IMG/VR virus record: IMGVR_UViG_3300029996_000156
Span: 1 to 5,230 of that record
Source of the DNA: a virus
Reading direction: 5' to 3' (one strand)
DNA length: 5,230 nucleotides
The position numbers and the translations under genes are program-made. A model generated the notes under the pieces. That model saw nothing but the letters and a program-made list of their open reading frames with translations. It made no database searches and was not told the DNA's origin. Positions 102 through 5,230 of this stretch are shown here, piece by piece (positions within the stretch are counted from its first letter, which is position 1; every line of letters begins with the position of its first letter).

Positions 102-154
102 AAAAAAAAAACTTCCCCCCGTGCCCTTTAGGGTCAGGGGGGTTGTTTTTTTTT
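102..154. terminator. Bidirectional rho-independent terminator that closes both the plus-strand Zot gene and the minus-strand cassette
   Basis: An A10 run (102-111) is followed by a CCCCCC (115-120) / GGGGGG (137-142) stem with an inner CCC/GGG pairing, then a T9 run (146-154). Each strand therefore reads hairpin followed by a U-run. Zot stops at 67-69, and the minus-strand ORF stops at 158-160. Confidence 0.8.
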
Positions 155-157
155 ACT

Positions 158-424
158 TTAAATTTTGTTGACGAAAACAAACATGTTTTCATCGCGTACG
201 AGATTGCCGTCTTCATCATACTTACCGCATGCGCCGTCTTCGTTCCATTTTTTCGCTGTCTCGATGCAGTAGTCAACATCTTCTACTTTGTAAGTGTCTG
301 TTTCTTCGTTGTATGGGAGTGAGCTTGAGTTGAAGTAGTCGATGCTCCAGTCTGGGTCATATCCGTTTCCGTTCCATCGTTGGAGTTTAATTTCTACGGT
401 CTTTTTTCCATCGGTGAGTTTCAT
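158..424 (-). CDS. 88-aa acidic small protein of unknown function (about 19 D/E against 11 K/R), distal gene of the antisense cassette
   Basis: ATG start, with AAAGGAG at 434-440 leaving 9 nt between the GGAG core and the ATG. The upstream gene's TGA stop (440-442) abuts this RBS, and the terminator follows immediately. I see no TM segment or HTH motif. Confidence 0.75.
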   Translation of the reverse strand: MKLTDGKKTVEIKLQRWNGNGYDPDWSIDYFNSSSLPYNEETDTYKVEDVDYCIETAKKWNEDGACGKYDEDGNLVRDENMFVFVNKI

Positions 425-439
425 TTTTTCTTTCTCCTT

Positions 440-676
440 TCAAAATCTCGTGAATGTTTTTCCGTCTGTTGTCTGTGCGATGAACTCCCAGAAAATATCA
501 TCAAGATACGCCGTTGTATCAACGTCGTTAATGTCAATACGCATGATGATAAAAAAGTCATAAAACTCTTTTTTTTCGTTCACTGCGGTGTACTTGACTG
601 CTCTGTATTGATAGTTTTTTGTGTAGACGATTCTTTCCGTAAAGACCTTTTCGAGGAATTTTGATTTAACTTTCAT
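440..676 (-). CDS. 78-aa small protein of unknown function (basic N-terminal half, acidic C-terminal half), proximal gene of the antisense cassette
   Basis: ATG start, with an AAAGGAAAGGAG RBS whose GGAG core (685-688) leaves 8 nt before the ATG. It lies downstream of a near-consensus promoter. The overlapping plus-strand ORFs (342-563, 380-664) lack an RBS. Confidence 0.75.
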   Translation of the reverse strand: MKVKSKFLEKVFTERIVYTKNYQYRAVKYTAVNEKKEFYDFFIIMRIDINDVDTTAYLDDIFWEFIAQTTDGKTFTRF

Positions 677-701
677 GGGCTTAACTCCTTTCCTTTTATG
701 C

Positions 702-749
702 TTCTATTGTAGCATAGAAATTTCTATTTGTCAATATGAAATTCTATTT
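702..749. promoter_or_regulatory. Operator-like repeat set overlapping the cassette promoter
   Basis: TTCTAT occurs at 702-707, 722-727 and 742-747, an exact 20-bp phasing. The extended direct repeats are GAAATTTCTATTT (717-729) and GAAATTCTATTT (738-749). The inverted pair TTCTAT (702-707) and ATAGAA (714-719) brackets the -10. Confidence 0.6.
706..734 (-). promoter_or_regulatory. Sigma70/SigA-type promoter for the minus-strand cassette
   Basis: Read on the minus strand: -35 TTGACA (734-729), an exact 17-nt spacer, then -10 TACAAT (711-706). This sits about 30 nt upstream of the ATG at 676. Confidence 0.7.
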
Positions 750-769
750 TCTTTTAAAAAAAACGCAGG

Positions 770-983
770 CAGTTGCTACGTTTAGTCACGCGATAGCGTC
801 TCCACCGCGTCCCTCGTCCTCGCAAGGGCAAAGCCCTTGCCATTCCAAAACAGGCTGGTAGGGGCTCTTAAGTTACCTGCTCTATCGTCATGGCGCTTCG
901 AGTTGGACAAAACTATGATTTTGTTCGACCTCCGTGCATCTTCGGTGCGCCGTGAATCGCTGGGCTACGTCTTAAGCGATTCA
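770..983 (+). other. GC-rich, hairpin-dense non-coding region: candidate single-strand origin (sso) and/or double-strand origin (dso)
   Basis: Hairpins present: ACGC-GATA-GCGT (788-799, containing TAGCGT at 794-799); a perfect 8-bp stem GCAAGGGC-aaa-GCCCTTGC (822-840); an imperfect 11-bp stem (902-929); GTGCA/TGCGC with a loop containing the sequence TTCG (934-950); and an 8-bp stem TGAATCGC/GCGATTCA (953-983). There is no convincing ORF, and the region is visibly GC-richer than its flanks. Confidence 0.5.
953..983 (+). promoter_or_regulatory. Candidate dso nick hairpin
   Basis: An 8-bp perfect stem carries a 15-nt loop, TGGGCTACGTCTTAA. The loop contains CTACG, the core of the pMV158-family nick sequence TACTACG/AC. 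Iterons lie immediately downstream. Confidence 0.4.
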
Positions 984-1033
984 TGTAGTTTGTAGATATT
1001 TCTACAAATCTACAAAATCAATAAATTTTGTAG
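983..1033. repeat. Iteron cluster, a candidate Rep-binding locus
   Basis: TGTAG at 984-988. TTTGTAG at 989-995 and 1027-1033. The complement CTACAAA at 1002-1008 and 1010-1016. TTTGTAGA-tatt-TCTACAAA forms an 8-bp-arm palindrome (989-1008) nested inside a longer imperfect one (984-1014). Confidence 0.55.
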
Positions 1034-1141
1034 TTAGTTGCGGTCTTCTCTCACTGCTCTAATCCTTTCGTTAAATTTCATAAGTCCTCCGTGTTGTTTT
1101 TGGTAGAAAAGTCAATTATATTATAATTCCGAAAAATACTC

Positions 1142-1170
1142 TTGACTTTAGTTCCTATCGGTATTATGGT
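1142..1170 (+). promoter_or_regulatory. Candidate promoter for rep and the plus-strand operon
   Basis: -35 TTGACT (1142-1147), a 17-nt spacer, then -10 TATGGT (1165-1170). An alternative upstream TATAAT (1122-1127) lies inside the palindrome AATTATA-T-TATAATT (1114-1128). The rep RBS AGGGGG sits at 1202-1207. Confidence 0.45.
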
Positions 1171-1214
1171 TATATTCAGAAAGTACCTAACGCTACTAAA
1201 TAGGGGGTTTTAGG

Positions 1215-1769
1215 ATGTCTGAGAAACAATCAAGAAATTTTCTTGGTGTGTTGTACCCAGATTCTACCACTTATGACTGTGATAAAGTTCTAAATCGTAT
1301 CGAAGACGCTTTTACCGAATACGCCTATATCTTACATGACATGGATACTGATGAAAATGGGGAGTTGAAAAAAGCTCATTATCATTGGTGCGGTAAACGC
1401 TCTACTCCTGCTCCTATATCGACCGTAGCAAATGCTTTGGGCGTGGAACAAAATTCTATTGAGTTCTGTAAACGCTGGATGTCTTCGCTCCGGTATTTGG
1501 TACATGCAGACAACCAAGAAAAACACCAATATTCGCTGGATGACTTGTCTGCTAACTTTGATTGCGAGAACATCGTCGGAAAATCTGAAACTTACAAAAG
1601 TCGCCAAATTTTTGAACACATTAAAGATAATCCATCCGAGAGTTATACCGCGCTTACTGCATGGTGCTTCGAGAATAATTTATGGAGCGAGTTTCGCCGC
1701 TCATTTTCTGTTTGGGCAAATCTCCTGCGGGAGTTAAATTATTTTGATTCATTACAAAAAAAGGAGTAA
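1215..1769 (+). CDS. rep: Rolling-circle replication initiator, HUH endonuclease of the pMV158 RepB (Rep_2) type
   Basis: Motif-level match to RepB recalled from memory: FLGVLYPDS (compare FTFLLYPES), LHDMD acidic/His metal-ligand region, KKAHYHW HUH motif (H55-Y-H57, nt 1377-1385), and LRYLVHADNQEKHQYSLDDL with candidate catalytic Tyr94 (nt 1494-1496). The RBS sits 7 nt upstream of the ATG. Confidence 0.88.
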   Translation: MSEKQSRNFLGVLYPDSTTYDCDKVLNRIEDAFTEYAYILHDMDTDENGELKKAHYHWCGKRSTPAPISTVANALGVEQNSIEFCKRWMSSLRYLVHADNQEKHQYSLDDLSANFDCENIVGKSETYKSRQIFEHIKDNPSESYTALTAWCFENNLWSEFRRSFSVWANLLRELNYFDSLQKKE

Positions 1770-1775
1770 AAAAAA

Positions 1776-1976
1776 ATGAAAATTACCTGTGTCGACGTTG
1801 TCAATGGTTACACAAAAAAGGGCACTCCCTTTGTGCATGGCGCTTTCCGTGGTGTTGGTAAGTCCGGTTCTCCGTTCCTGTTCGTTGCAAACTGTCCGCC
1901 CGACTATGAGCCGCTTAAAGATTATGATGCTCGCGTCATTTTCTCCCCTCAAGGCAACTTTATTTTGCCTTACTGA
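1776..1976 (+). CDS. 66-aa protein, a candidate ssDNA-binding (gene V-like) protein by position only
   Basis: AAGGAG RBS (1761-1766) 9 nt before the ATG. It follows rep directly, as gV follows gII in Ff phages, and its small size suits an OB-fold. No sequence motif was recognised. Confidence 0.7.
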   Translation: MKITCVDVVNGYTKKGTPFVHGAFRGVGKSGSPFLFVANCPPDYEPLKDYDARVIFSPQGNFILPY

Positions 1977-1984
1977 TTTTTTAT

Positions 1985-2058
1985 CGCGGGGTGGTGCAAC
2001 GGTAGCACGTCAGTCTCTGAAACTGAAACTGCTGGTTCGAGTCCAGACCCCGCAACCA
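1985..2058 (+). tRNA. tRNA-Gln, anticodon CUG, with encoded CCA
   Basis: Manual cloverleaf. Acceptor stem 1985-1991 / 2048-2054, 6 of 7 pairs with C1.A72 unpaired. U8. D stem GTGC/GCAC with loop AACGGTA (A14, G18, G19, A21). Anticodon stem TCAGT/ACTGA with loop CTCTGAA (U33, anticodon CTG at 2017-2019, A37). A 4-nt variable loop. T stem GCTGG/CCAGA with one G.A mismatch, and T loop TTCGAGT. Discriminator A, then CCA (2056-2058). Confidence 0.8.
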
Positions 2059-2105: not shown

Positions 2106-3281
2106 GTGAAGAAAAAGCAGCGGTGCTTGGTTAAGCGCTTCGCCGCCCTTGTCGCGGCTCTGATGGTTTCTCTTTCTTTGTGTACTCCTTGTTTTGCTTC
2201 TGGCACGGAAATTGTTATGCCGTCTTTGGATGACTTTTATAAGCACCATGGTTCTTGGTTTGTTTGGCGTAAGCTTGTTTCTCACGGCATAGATTGTTTT
2301 GAGCTTCTTTGCTCTCCTATTTCTGTTTCTGGCTCTTCTTATACATTGCCGTATTCTATTTCTTATTCTACGGATGCGTTTGATGTTTCTTATTTGGCTA
2401 ACGATTCTGGCTTAGCTTATGATTATGCTTGCGCTTTTCCTTATCCTCTTCGCGGTGCTTCTGGTCTTTGGTCTGAACTTCCCTCTTTTCCTGTTGGTTT
2501 TGGTTTTTCCCCTCAAACTTCTGTTGTCCGCGTTTATTCTACTTCTGCTCAACCCTCTGGAACTTATGGCTTTTTAACTTCTTCTTTTAGCCGTTCAGAC
2601 CGTATTCTTTCTTTCGGTAATACTGCCGGTTCTTCTTCTGGCTCTTCTACTGATACTTTAGATTCTTTCACTTTTTCTTCCCCCTTTTATTCATATCCTT
2701 TTGCTATTCGTTATTCTACTTCTTCTTCTGCAAGCGGCTATGTTTTACAGGGTGGTGATTCTTCGTTTATTGTTCCTCCTAATGCTTATTCTAATTTGAT
2801 GCAAATAAATCTTAATTCTAATCGTTATCTTTTGGGAACTCATTCTTTTGTTCCTTATCCGTCCGGATATACTATTCCATCTTCTGATATCGGTTTTGTT
2901 TTTGTGAAAAAGCCTTCTTCCTCCCCTGTTTATTCTGCTTCTGCCTTTGATACTACCGCTTCTTTCGCTTTTTCTCTCCTTGTTCCTGCTTCTCTTTTGC
3001 CTGACGTTAAGCTTGGTGCCTGGCTTTCCGACTCGCCTGAGGATTTGCAGAAAGTTATTACTGATGAATTTGACATAGATTCTGATACCCTGAAAGAGTC
3101 TAAAGATTTATTGAATTCGTTTAAAAATTCTTCTTCTGTTGATAAAGATGTTGCTGCGGGCGCTTCTGGTCTTCTTGGCGCTATTTTTCAGAATTTAGGC
3201 ACGTTTCTCTTTTCCGTTTCTCTCCTTTGCTTTGGTGCTGTTTTTCTCCGAATTCTTATTAGAAAGGCGGTCGACGGATGA
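2106..3281 (+). CDS. 391-aa secreted, Ser-rich, C-terminally membrane-anchored protein: a candidate pIII-like adsorption/minor coat protein
   Basis: GTG start with an AAGGTGG RBS (2092-2098) 7 nt upstream. The Sec signal is MKKKQRCLVKRFAALVAALMVSLSLCTPCFA/SG. The body is long, Ser/Phe/Tyr-rich and of low complexity. A C-terminal TM segment (FLFSVSLLCFGAVFLRILI) is followed by RK. It is the largest ORF in the morphogenesis block. Confidence 0.8.
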   Translation: MKKKQRCLVKRFAALVAALMVSLSLCTPCFASGTEIVMPSLDDFYKHHGSWFVWRKLVSHGIDCFELLCSPISVSGSSYTLPYSISYSTDAFDVSYLANDSGLAYDYACAFPYPLRGASGLWSELPSFPVGFGFSPQTSVVRVYSTSAQPSGTYGFLTSSFSRSDRILSFGNTAGSSSGSSTDTLDSFTFSSPFYSYPFAIRYSTSSSASGYVLQGGDSSFIVPPNAYSNLMQINLNSNRYLLGTHSFVPYPSGYTIPSSDIGFVFVKKPSSSPVYSASAFDTTASFAFSLLVPASLLPDVKLGAWLSDSPEDLQKVITDEFDIDSDTLKESKDLLNSFKNSSSVDKDVAAGASGLLGAIFQNLGTFLFSVSLLCFGAVFLRILIRKAVDG

Positions 3282-3409: not shown

Positions 3410-3570
3410 ACTTTGTTTCGACTCTTGCTGTTGTGACATCGTTTATTGCGAATGTTCTTAACCTTTCTTTTTTCGGTTTCGGCACTTTTGGTACAGTTGT
3501 CCTTATCTTTCTTCTGCTTTCGCTTGTTGGTTTTGTTCTTCGTGCCATTTGGGATGGGGGTGATAAATGA
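3403..3570 (+). CDS. 55-aa hydrophobic membrane protein (MVDFVSTLAVVTSFIANVLNLSFFGFGTFGTVVLIFLLLSLVGFVLRAIWDGGDK)
   Basis: Its ATG overlaps the preceding TGG-TAG (ATGGTAG at 3403-3409), and its stop overlaps the next ATG (ATGA at 3567-3570). It has two hydrophobic segments. Translated by hand. Confidence 0.55.
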   Translation: MVDFVSTLAVVTSFIANVLNLSFFGFGTFGTVVLIFLLLSLVGFVLRAIWDGGDK

Positions 3571-4181
3571 TGGAAGTCCCTGTTGTTATCAAAACTTGGG
3601 TTGATTCTGACGGCGTTACCGTCTACACAGTGCAGTATAAAGATGGCAGTACTTGTGATATGACCGTCCAGCAGTATGATTATCTTAAGGCGTCTGCGCA
3701 GGCTGTCGCCGATTTGGACTCTAAAGCCGCTTCTGATTCTTCCTTGGAAGCTTCTCCTGCTCCTGAGGACCCCGCGCAGAATATTACAGAATCTCCTGAC
3801 CTCCGTGATGGCTATGTGCCGGAGGAAGTTGAATTGCCTTTTGAGGGGAGCTTGACCGCTTATGATGACCGCGCCGCAGATACTCCGGCTCTGTATGCTA
3901 ATCTCCCTAACGTCTCTAATAGTTTCACTGCTATTATGGATTGGTTCGGTGATACGTTTTTCATCGAACGCACTGAGACGGTTCACAAGTCCGGTTATAC
4001 GTCCGAAAGGTATTCCTATAACAGTTCGACTCAACTTATTCAGCTCCCTTATGAGGAAGATTCCATTACTACATCTCAAGTTCTCAACCCGCAAGCTTGC
4101 GTTTCTGCTTTGCTTGTTGTCCTTGTTTTTGTCACTACTGTTACATGGATTAAAAACGCGATTTGGGGGCGCATGAGCTGA
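3567..4181 (+). CDS. 204-aa acidic protein with a single C-terminal TM anchor and no signal peptide, function unknown
   Basis: ATGA overlap with the upstream ORF and TGATG overlap with the downstream ORF. C-terminal TM segment ACVSALLVVLVFVTTVTWI. The antisense 250-aa ORF (3342-4094) is Arg-rich and lacks an RBS. Confidence 0.72.
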   Translation: MMEVPVVIKTWVDSDGVTVYTVQYKDGSTCDMTVQQYDYLKASAQAVADLDSKAASDSSLEASPAPEDPAQNITESPDLRDGYVPEEVELPFEGSLTAYDDRAADTPALYANLPNVSNSFTAIMDWFGDTFFIERTETVHKSGYTSERYSYNSSTQLIQLPYEEDSITTSQVLNPQACVSALLVVLVFVTTVTWIKNAIWGRMS

Positions 4182-4523: not shown

Positions 4524-4533
4524 CGATTGAGAG

Positions 4534-4572
4534 AAAACGCCGCCGACCATTTTTAATGGTCGGCGACGTTTT
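4534..4572 (+). terminator. Long hairpin terminator or attenuator between the coat cluster and the assembly ATPase gene
   Basis: AAAACGcCGCCGACCAT-tttta-ATGGTCGGCGaCGTTTT gives 17 positions with one C.A mismatch, including a perfect 10-bp GC-rich core (4541-4550 / 4556-4565) and a trailing T run. The zot RBS GAAAGGA starts at 4581. Confidence 0.65.
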
Positions 4573-4596
4573 CGCATTTAGAAAGGATTATATGTT

Positions 4597-5211
4597 ATGC
4601 TTTATGGTATTCTTGTCTTTTGCATTTGTTGGCTTTTTGTTTATATCGATAGCTATTGCAAAAACCCCTACAAACTTGAGGCTGTTGTTGGTTCAAAAGG
4701 CTCTGGCAAGTCTTTGTATATGTCTCGTGTTGCTGATAAGTGGCTACGTGCTAATAAGGGGCTTATCTATAGTAATATGGGTATTGGTTACGAGTTAGAG
4801 CCGGAATACTGGAAACAGACCTTTATTCCTGATTCCCTTATTCTCATTGACGAAATTGGCGTGCTGCACTCTAATCGTGATTTTAAAACTATGCCCCGTG
4901 AAGCTGTCGAGTTTTTCAAGATGCAGCGCAAATATCATTTGACGATTATTGTATCGTCTCAGACCATGGACTTTGATAAAAAGATACGTGACCTTTGTGA
5001 CCGCATTTACCTCTGCAACCGCATTGGCTGGTTCTGCCGTCTTACTCCCTATCGCTCCTGTATCGCTATGGAACATCGGCCCGAGGGCGGCCAAGAGCTC
5101 GTCAACACGGTGCGCAAGGCAGGTCGGGCAAGGTGGTATACCATCCCCAAGTCCGTGAAGCAGGTAAGTGCCTTAGAATACGATACAGAGCAGATTATTA
5201 GTAAGCAATAA
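4597..5211 (+). CDS. Zot / pI-family morphogenesis ATPase (P-loop NTPase)
   Basis: Walker A GSKGSGKS, Walker B-like SLILIDE, and an N-terminal hydrophobic helix MLYGILVFCICWLFVYI. The GAAAGGA RBS ends 9 nt before the ATG. TAA stop at 5209-5211. Confidence 0.88.
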   Translation: MLYGILVFCICWLFVYIDSYCKNPYKLEAVVGSKGSGKSLYMSRVADKWLRANKGLIYSNMGIGYELEPEYWKQTFIPDSLILIDEIGVLHSNRDFKTMPREAVEFFKMQRKYHLTIIVSSQTMDFDKKIRDLCDRIYLCNRIGWFCRLTPYRSCIAMEHRPEGGQELVNTVRKAGRARWYTIPKSVKQVSALEYDTEQIISKQ

Positions 5212-5230
5212 GTTGCTTCGTTTTGTTGCG
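5143..5230. repeat. Terminal direct repeat, copy 2 (identical to 1-88)
   Basis: Same 88-bp string as 1-88, at an offset of 5142 bp. Confidence 0.97.

Follow-up and report, generated by a model that had tools for sequence, protein, structure and literature searches.

Small phages with single-stranded DNA (ssDNA) genomes are usually viewed as having no room for accessory biology. The described systems that come closest to the locus considered here are the anti-CRISPR (acr-aca) operons, the morons of lambdoid and other temperate phages, the lysogeny and immunity repressors RstR (CTXphi) and Pf4r (Pf4), and the HigB-HigA type II toxin-antitoxin (TA) pairs. In acr-aca operons, a constant regulator with a helix-turn-helix (HTH) domain stands behind variable small effectors under a strong promoter that bears palindromes, and their design principles include bifunctional regulators and non-HTH regulators of the ribbon-helix-helix (RHH) type (PMC6765145, PMC13551039). 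Among inoviruses, two of ten hypothetical proteins that were tested excluded superinfection in Pseudomonas (PMC6813254). Here, we describe an antisense unit of two small genes, orfA and orfB, in the 5,230 nucleotides of the IMG/VR virus record IMGVR_UViG_3300029996_000156 (the whole stretch is called the window below), which hold the genome of a circular inovirus, a gut filamentous phage. We consider, with a probability of roughly one in two for the reading as a whole, that this unit, which takes up about 12% of the 5.1-kb genome, is a modular accessory-gene expression cassette in which orfA is a candidate autorepressor and orfB a likely inhibitor of the anti-defence type.

The original prediction, which was made from the letters of the window, had described a 78-aa gene and a strongly acidic 88-aa gene on the minus strand, with the stop codon of the first abutting the ribosome-binding site of the second, and both were located as described:

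440..676, minus strand: orfA, 78 aa, with a basic N-terminal third and an acidic C-terminal third
158..424, minus strand: orfB, 88 aa, isoelectric point 4.38, net charge −8
685..691, minus strand: orfA ribosome-binding site AAAGGAG, nearly invariant across relatives
434..439, minus strand: orfB ribosome-binding site AAGGAG, abutting the orfA stop TGA (442..440)
156..437, minus strand: insertion of about 282 bp (+/−5) with the orfB ribosome-binding site and orfB, between the orfA stop and the terminator
102..154, both strands: bidirectional intrinsic terminator, consisting of A10, a GC-rich hairpin (115-142) and T9
761..783, minus strand: terminator-like hairpin directly upstream of the promoter, only partly kept in relatives

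The unit shares with the acr-aca operons a strong promoter with inverted repeats over the −35, spacer or −10 and the use of small, often acidic effectors that lack functionally known homologues and have been exchanged among unrelated elements; in tailed phages, in which orfB also occurs, the likeness extends to a conserved downstream HTH gene with a co-varying operator and to the many small open reading frames (ORFs) that are found ahead of it. However, the inovirus window has no HTH gene, the downstream one accompanying only the orfB of tailed phages (31 of 43 distinct loci); orfA, which is the constant gene, precedes the variable one, encodes neither an HTH nor an RHH protein and usually stands alone; and orfB and its HTH partner match no known Acr or Aca. 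With the morons, the unit shares its nature as an accessory insert that is absent in close relatives and is oriented against the backbone genes between which it lies, as well as the possession of a promoter and a terminator, and in tailed prophages orfB occupies classic moron positions. Unlike a moron, orfB in the window borrows the orfA promoter and the backbone terminator and has a promoter of its own only in tailed phages; moreover, the unit has an internal, reusable cargo slot, and the promoter-orfA module itself moves among Inoviridae, other small replicons and Microviridae. The claim that the unit is autonomous and accessory was borne out by its own strong promoter and terminator and by its being missing from close porcine relatives. 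We regard it as working like an acr-aca or moron cassette without being a demonstrable member of a described Acr, Aca, TA or inovirus-repressor family; what is new is the combination of a portable promoter-orfA module in Inoviridae and Microviridae, an internal cargo slot, cargo that is shared with Caudoviricetes and two unassigned folds.

Promoter, palindromes and terminator of the unit

The orfA promoter is a near-consensus promoter of the sigma-A/sigma-70 type, in which TTGACA (734..729) and TACAAT (711..706) are separated by 17 nt and an extended TG lies at 714..713; with a score of 11/12 it is the top site in the window, in agreement with the original prediction. Here, three plus-strand copies of the hexamer TTCTAT (702, 722 and 742) are joined by an inverted one at 714-719. 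Although the total of nine TTCTAT hexamers in the window against 4.4 expected is unremarkable, four hexamers within 50 bp were found in none of 5000 first-order Markov simulations (0/5000), as was also the case for a same-strand triple spaced exactly 20 bp (0/5000). The positions and the 20-bp phasing of the repeats, which had been pointed out earlier, are therefore real, but the hexamers are not simple direct repeats; they are the half-sites of two 18-bp palindromes, TTCTAT-N6-ATAGAA, whose centres lie 20 bp apart, with a degenerate third site another 20 bp upstream:

702..719: O2, TTCTAT-TGTAGC-ATAGAA, perfect, centred on the −10 (GCTACA-AT) and retained in the microvirus copies
722..739: O1, with two mismatches, centred on the −35, its central N6 being TGACAA
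742..759: third, degenerate site with two mismatches, its TTCTAT half (742-747) intact, 20 bp in phase with O1 and O2

In most relatives, O1 is closer to perfect than in the window. Across 23 relatives, hardly anything changes between the first ATAGAA and the start codon, whereas the flank just upstream of this stretch varies freely; the promoter and operators are also kept in unrelated backbones and in microviruses. A search of IMG/VR with the promoter gave 86 exact 16-mer matches, most of them due to chance; seven had the full double-palindrome promoter, and an orfA gene lay downstream in all seven. Across the window genome, the palindrome search found no copy besides those of the orfA promoter and none at the Rep promoter, the Rep-proximal repeats TTTGTAGA/TCTACAAA being of a motif distinct from the orfA operators. 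To our knowledge, no known regulator site matches TTCTAT-N6-ATAGAA. Two other roles of the repeats were considered and rejected: an ssDNA promoter of the Frpo type, since palindromes this short could not yield a double-stranded −35/−10 hairpin, and a Rep origin, since they are kept irrespective of the Rep type.

At the junction of the two genes, TGAAAGGAG (442..434), the TGA of orfA is continuous with the ribosome-binding site of orfB. Both strands of the terminator fold (−29.9 kcal/mol for the plus strand and −26.6 kcal/mol for the minus strand), with U-runs on both, as befits the bidirectional terminator that had been proposed. It is common to the convergent Zot-like gene and the antisense unit and is kept in three related genomes (L150, L018 and L125; such numbers denote loci fetched for comparison); because it is also present in relatives that have no orfB, it is a backbone element. 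The hairpin at 761..783 may be an insulator.

The promoter-orfA module, the cargo slot and the orfB family

The promoter-orfA module was found at about 35 fetched loci in related inoviruses, other small replicons and Microviridae, and the orfA homologues lie almost exclusively on contigs of about 4.5-7 kb. Only about seven real clusters (at 50% identity) came out of an exhaustive HMMER search for orfA homologues, from which P0237, P0240 and P0241, large repeat proteins, were struck as translated tandem repeats. In 26 fetched relatives, orfA lies antisense and converges on the Zot gene irrespective of which Rep type is present; only three of the 26 have the Rep_OBD module of the window. In Rep_OBD replicons of 5.5-7.3 kb, an orfA homologue with the same promoter core and 5' leader is accompanied by a separate HTH_3 gene upstream. 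The earlier statement that no HTH protein is encoded thus stands for the window genome, in which a Pfam scan of ten ORFs detected no HTH domain, but does not extend to these related replicons. Gokusho-like Microviridae genomes with an orfA homologue (49-55% identical) have no other antisense gene, and the promoter of the homologue reads TTGACA-17-TATAAT with O2 preserved. In the GenBank record of a vaginal Microvirus, OP549876.1 (L149), an unannotated 69-aa orfA homologue (2548-2757, minus strand) stands between the DNA pilot and Rep genes; it has the same promoter as well as a bidirectional terminator. On an 8191-bp contig (L146), an orfA-bearing gokusho-like microvirus is contiguous with radA-like, amidase and cotJA/B/C genes, which indicates that it is integrated in a spore-forming Firmicute.

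The porcine inoviruses MT135292, MT135293, MT135296 and MT135305 lack the orfA unit altogether, and orfA is therefore dispensable for the basic life cycle. At the equivalent position, MT135296.1 (L004) has two unrelated small helical antisense ORFs of 68 and 61 aa (3449-3846, minus strand), and another porcine relative has only 284 bp. It appears that the interval from Zot to Rep is, more generally, a hotspot of antisense accessory genes.

The comparison of the window with two close relatives (L150 and L151) shows how orfA varies. Promoter, orfB and terminator are about 96% identical and the backbones roughly 90-96% identical, whereas an orfA allele of 69 aa that is about 42% identical replaces the coding sequence of the window from just after the start codon. 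The swap is a case of allelic replacement by recombination; promoter and orfA form a mobile module, and the orfA alleles are exchanged between near-identical backbones. In one further genome (L114), a GC-rich insert with a 167-aa ORF was seen about 540 bp past orfA, where the Zot match is cut off; the two possible explanations are a chimeric assembly and a larger cargo insertion.

The orfB insert is missing in all 26 orfA-bearing relatives. Its boundaries can be read from L014, which joins window position 438 straight to 155, and the distance between the orfA and Zot stops is 50-130 bp in most genomes, in which the slot is empty. Elsewhere the slot holds a basic ORF of 76 aa (L117, L118 and L131), an acidic ORF of 51-52 aa (L119 and L239) or orfB (the window, L150/151 and L240/241, each with a different orfA allele ahead of it); wherever the slot is filled, a junction of the TGA-AAGGAG type precedes the cargo. 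In the window, orfB has neither a promoter nor a terminator of its own and depends on those of orfA and the backbone, respectively. In L242/243, orfB lies beside the Zot terminator with no orfA directly upstream. Two small contigs with orfB (L087 and L091) were rejected as inoviruses, as they are fragments with a methylase, IS200/IS605 and other genes. To judge by these comparisons, the position behind orfA is a reusable cargo slot ahead of the backbone terminator.

orfB, by comparison, belongs to a family of about 110 homologous clusters, most of them on contigs of 20-90 kb, with 156 matches in IMG/VR. Its homologues are found mostly in tailed (pro)phages of Clostridia of about 40 kb; the matches in genomes are from Clostridiales, Oscillospiraceae, Christensenellales, Ruminococcus and Agathobaculum, and more distant ones are from Bifidobacterium and Collinsella. 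The tailed-phage loci were read from called genes and by motif-anchored extraction. In them, orfB is oriented against its neighbours in moron positions, with the lysis cassette on one side and the integrase or prophage end on the other, or else between small terminase gene and early genes. It is usually the first gene of an operon, behind a promoter resembling TTGACA-17-TATAAT with a palindrome in the spacer, and 12-14 nt after it, in 31 of 43 distinct loci, begins the gene for a protein of 112-125 aa with a C-terminal HTH_3 domain (phrog_25567). Both arms of the spacer palindrome vary with the HTH subtype (CCACGCA/TGCGTGG vs CCACCAA/TTGGTGG), and the covariation of operator and regulator was seen in L133, L005, L009, L041 and other loci with the palindrome 50-75 nt upstream of the orfB homologues. 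Such covariation is sound comparative support for the view that the HTH protein autoregulates this operon by binding its operator. When the HTH partner served as bait in 80 IMG/VR loci, orfB was upstream in 19 and other, naively called ORFs in about 52, many of which are unrelated to each other and most of which are small and acidic. PDB sequence searches with the HTH partner gave weak matches to HigA2 (E 0.02-0.035) and Atu1735 and none to a solved Aca structure, the libraries used being general ones with none dedicated to Aca proteins. In a rough neighbour-joining tree, the inovirus copies of orfB group together inside the diversity of the tailed phages, a placement which fits the capture of orfB from tailed phages followed by its spread among inovirus backbones; such a transfer was not recent, since the synonymous divergence from the sampled tailed-phage copies is saturated. 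Taken with the loci in which either gene occurs alone, the comparisons indicate that orfA and orfB have separate histories and are not a co-evolved pair. The expectation of a conserved pair next to variable neighbours was not borne out, as orfA occurs without orfB in 26 relatives and orfB without orfA in tailed phages.

Neither protein could be placed in a known family. Searches of Pfam, PHROGs, PADLOC and NCBIfam gave no significant match for orfA or orfB, the sole trace being DUF7661 (E 0.006, below its cut-off); sequence-profile searches of the PDB were empty, tblastn of both proteins against GenBank phages gave no match, and a full-text literature search with sequence fragments and DUF7661 returned no paper. 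The AlphaFold2 model of orfB (predicted local distance difference test score, pLDDT, 96.9) is beta-rich with two short helices, a novel alpha/beta fold, and that of orfA (pLDDT 95.6) has an N-terminal helix, a long beta hairpin, in which the allelic variation in length sits, a short helix and two further strands, likewise a novel fold (alpha+beta). Foldseek searches of the PDB gave best E values of 1.2 (orfB) and 0.2 (orfA) with template modelling scores of about 0.35 or less, and the BFVD matches for orfB were uncharacterised gut-phage proteins only. The absence of a recognised motif that had been reported earlier was thus upheld, as neither protein fell into a structural or replication family in the Pfam, PHROGs, PDB profile and Foldseek searches, and orfB can be described as a small mobile-element protein of 88 aa whose relatives are solely uncharacterised phage proteins. 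By sequence, orfA is dipolar (net +4 in residues 1-24 and net −4 in residues 49-78), and its conservation peaks in the basic N-terminal helix and the first strands. It was rejected as an ssDNA-binding protein, since it has no such fold match and a 66-aa gene occupies the usual position of gene V. A neutral ratio of nonsynonymous to synonymous substitution (dN/dS) had been named as a finding that would speak against the original prediction; the ratio was instead about 0.15 for orfA (within the 78-aa type) and about 0.1 for orfB (family-wide), values that point to purifying selection on both genes.

Candidate roles of orfA and orfB

In the reading that we favour, the incoming ssDNA would be made double-stranded by complementary-strand synthesis, after which the host RNA polymerase would transcribe orfA and orfB strongly, and a dimeric repressor on O1 and O2 would then shut the promoter down. 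orfA itself would be the most economical candidate for this repressor because the operator and orfA are strictly co-inherited, the genome encodes no HTH protein and the basic N-terminus is conserved. As it is usually the sole gene in the unit, orfA would need a further target beyond autoregulation, and a non-HTH autoregulator or an effector are both possible descriptions of it. orfB, in turn, would most likely inhibit a host factor in the manner of anti-defence (Acr-like) proteins. In favour of this role, it is small, acidic, of a new fold and shuffled between unrelated phages of the same hosts, and it takes the effector position in aca-like operons. Of the functions that had been suggested earlier, counter-defence by orfB gains circumstantial backing from the acr-aca-like context in tailed phages, whereas a toxin-antitoxin pair formed by orfA and orfB is unlikely because each occurs without the other and the slot also holds other genes.

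Several observations weigh against this reading. No recognisable DNA-binding fold was found in orfA by Pfam, PDB profile or Foldseek searches, and its alleles, only 32-55% identical, stand behind essentially one operator and are therefore unlike allele-specific repressors. The HTH_3 gene upstream of orfA in related replicons could be the real regulator there, and a host protein could bind the palindromes. As regards orfB, neither sequence nor fold searches linked it to a known Acr or other anti-defence protein; the weak likeness of its HTH partner to HigA2 could mean that the tailed-phage operon is TA-like, and the naive calling of the upstream ORFs lessens the weight of the 80-locus survey.

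A possible, if somewhat unlikely, alternative is that the palindromes are bound by a regulator of the host or of a co-resident element and that orfA is a pure effector with no DNA-binding role, which would make the unit a host-conditioned accessory unit. It would account for the lack of a DNA-binding signature in orfA, for the single operator type that serves such divergent alleles (32-55% identical) and for the HTH_3 gene upstream in related replicons. However, the operator is strictly inherited together with orfA in replicons that differ greatly from one another, the palindrome resembles no regulator site that we know of, and orfA is most conserved in its basic N-terminal helix and first strands.

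It is unlikely that orfB is a toxin, a defence protein or a superinfection-exclusion effector, which in tailed phages would form a HigBA-like TA or abortive-infection pair with the HTH protein and in the inovirus would protect the carrier or stabilise the phage. The tailed-phage operon does resemble the HigB-HigA type in its order, with a small gene first and a gene for a C-terminal Xre-type HTH second, in its promoter palindrome and in the weak match of the HTH partner to HigA2. Moreover, the prophage moron positions by the lysis genes or integrase are also home to defence genes that are expressed in lysogens, and the two exclusion proteins among the ten tested from inoviruses (PMC6813254) set a precedent. 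Against this, orfB is strongly acidic, has no RelE/ParE-like fold and matches no toxin family, and the genes of the HTH family follow numerous small acidic ORFs that are unrelated to one another, as regulators of the aca type more typically do. Unlike in HigB-HigA, co-occurrence is not obligate; because orfB is kept under purifying selection in four inovirus lineages and several tailed-phage contexts that lack the HTH partner, a toxin role is disfavoured, although a defence or exclusion role is conceivable.

We find it quite unlikely that orfA is a lysogeny or immunity repressor of the RstR/Pf4r kind that silences rep and the late genes in an integrated or carrier state, with orfB as a passenger. 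The likeness to RstR and Pf4r lies in a small antisense gene by the replication module, divergent from Rep across the origin region, with palindromic operators that overlap its own promoter and with strongly divergent alleles on near-identical backbones that recall the heteroimmune rstR alleles; chromosomally embedded copies of the inovirus (L144) and the microvirus (L146) would also suit an integrated state. Unlike these Xre/CI-type repressors, however, orfA has no HTH or other known DNA-binding fold, its model showing one N-terminal helix and beta strands. No operator copy lies near the Rep promoter or elsewhere in the genome, the operators are constant whatever the orfA allele, and the module is indifferent to the Rep type and also present in microviruses, whose promoters are unrelated. 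Finally, close relatives manage without the module, and some relatives have an HTH_3 gene besides orfA.

A functionally coupled pair that evolved together, either as toxin and antitoxin or as regulator and effector, is very improbable, since the tight spacing, the single promoter and terminator for both genes and the recurrence of the orfA-orfB order with three orfA alleles are outweighed by the 26 of 26 fetched relatives with orfA and no orfB, by the dozens of tailed phages in which orfB has no orfA beside it, as in L242, where none lies directly upstream, and by the other cargo genes in the same slot.

Within the favoured reading of a modular cassette, it is doubtful, though conceivable, that orfA represents a new class of small autorepressors, neither HTH nor RHH, that act on twin palindromes and that the unit is a portable platform of Inoviridae and Microviridae for launching exchangeable anti-defence cargo such as orfB, itself a new family that is shared with tailed phages.

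The surrounding genome and the place of the unit among gut phages

The 5230-base window is a 5142-bp circle that was read slightly past its start (1-88 = 5143-5230). Its plus strand contains the following genes besides the antisense unit:

1215-1769, plus strand: replication protein of the Rep_OBD type
plus strand: gene for a 66-aa protein
1985-2058, plus strand: tRNA-Gln(CTG), Rfam 54.7 bits
plus strand: gene for a 391-aa serine-rich protein
plus strand: several genes for small hydrophobic proteins
plus strand: gene for a 204-aa protein
4597-5211, plus strand: stand-alone Zot-like ATPase

The nearest GenBank records are porcine 'Inovirus sp.', in which the structural and Zot module is about 86% identical to the window at the DNA level. 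Stand-alone Zot domains have been described earlier in gut inoviruses of Clostridiales (PMC8530359). In the Rfam scan, the tRNA was the sole real match; tRNA-Gln(CTG) is kept across the clade (the window, L014, L117, L150, L003 and the chromosomally embedded L144), while replicons of the L236 type have a tRNA-Glu in its place. It could serve as an integration target, as an attP mimic or for codon supply.

The replication module (window 866-1983) is exchanged among genomes that are otherwise roughly 90% identical: Rep_OBD with the 66-aa gene is found in the window, L117/118/132 and L150/151, a 381-aa 'protein A' module in MT135293 and MT135296, and a Rep_trans module in L144 and L241. Directly upstream of the Rep promoter-like sites (1100-1170), at window positions 983-1033, the repeats TTTGTAGA and TCTACAAA alternate; they are probably Rep_OBD iterons or a double-strand origin. 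A perfect hairpin, GCAAGGGC-AAA-GCCCTTGC, at 822-840 lies within a block (779-866) that is kept even in the porcine relatives without orfA as well as in L144 and L240, and it is a candidate minus-strand origin or packaging signal. Another long perfect hairpin at 4531-4575, between a 50-aa gene and the Zot-like gene, is kept in relatives and gave weak, spurious miRNA matches in Rfam; internal termination or attenuation ahead of Zot is its probable function.

Because the module is shared with Microviridae and the cargo with tailed phages, gene flow connects three widely differing groups of phages that share the same gut Clostridia. Further cassettes of this kind can be sought with two simple markers, the double-palindrome promoter and the junction TGA-AAGGAG. 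If orfB and the alternative cargo genes do act against host defences, the slot would be a compact and easily mined source of new inhibitors of the poorly studied defences of Firmicutes; and if orfA does bind the palindromes, it would represent a new DNA-binding fold and, with its promoter, a minimal regulated expression module for Gram-positive anaerobes.

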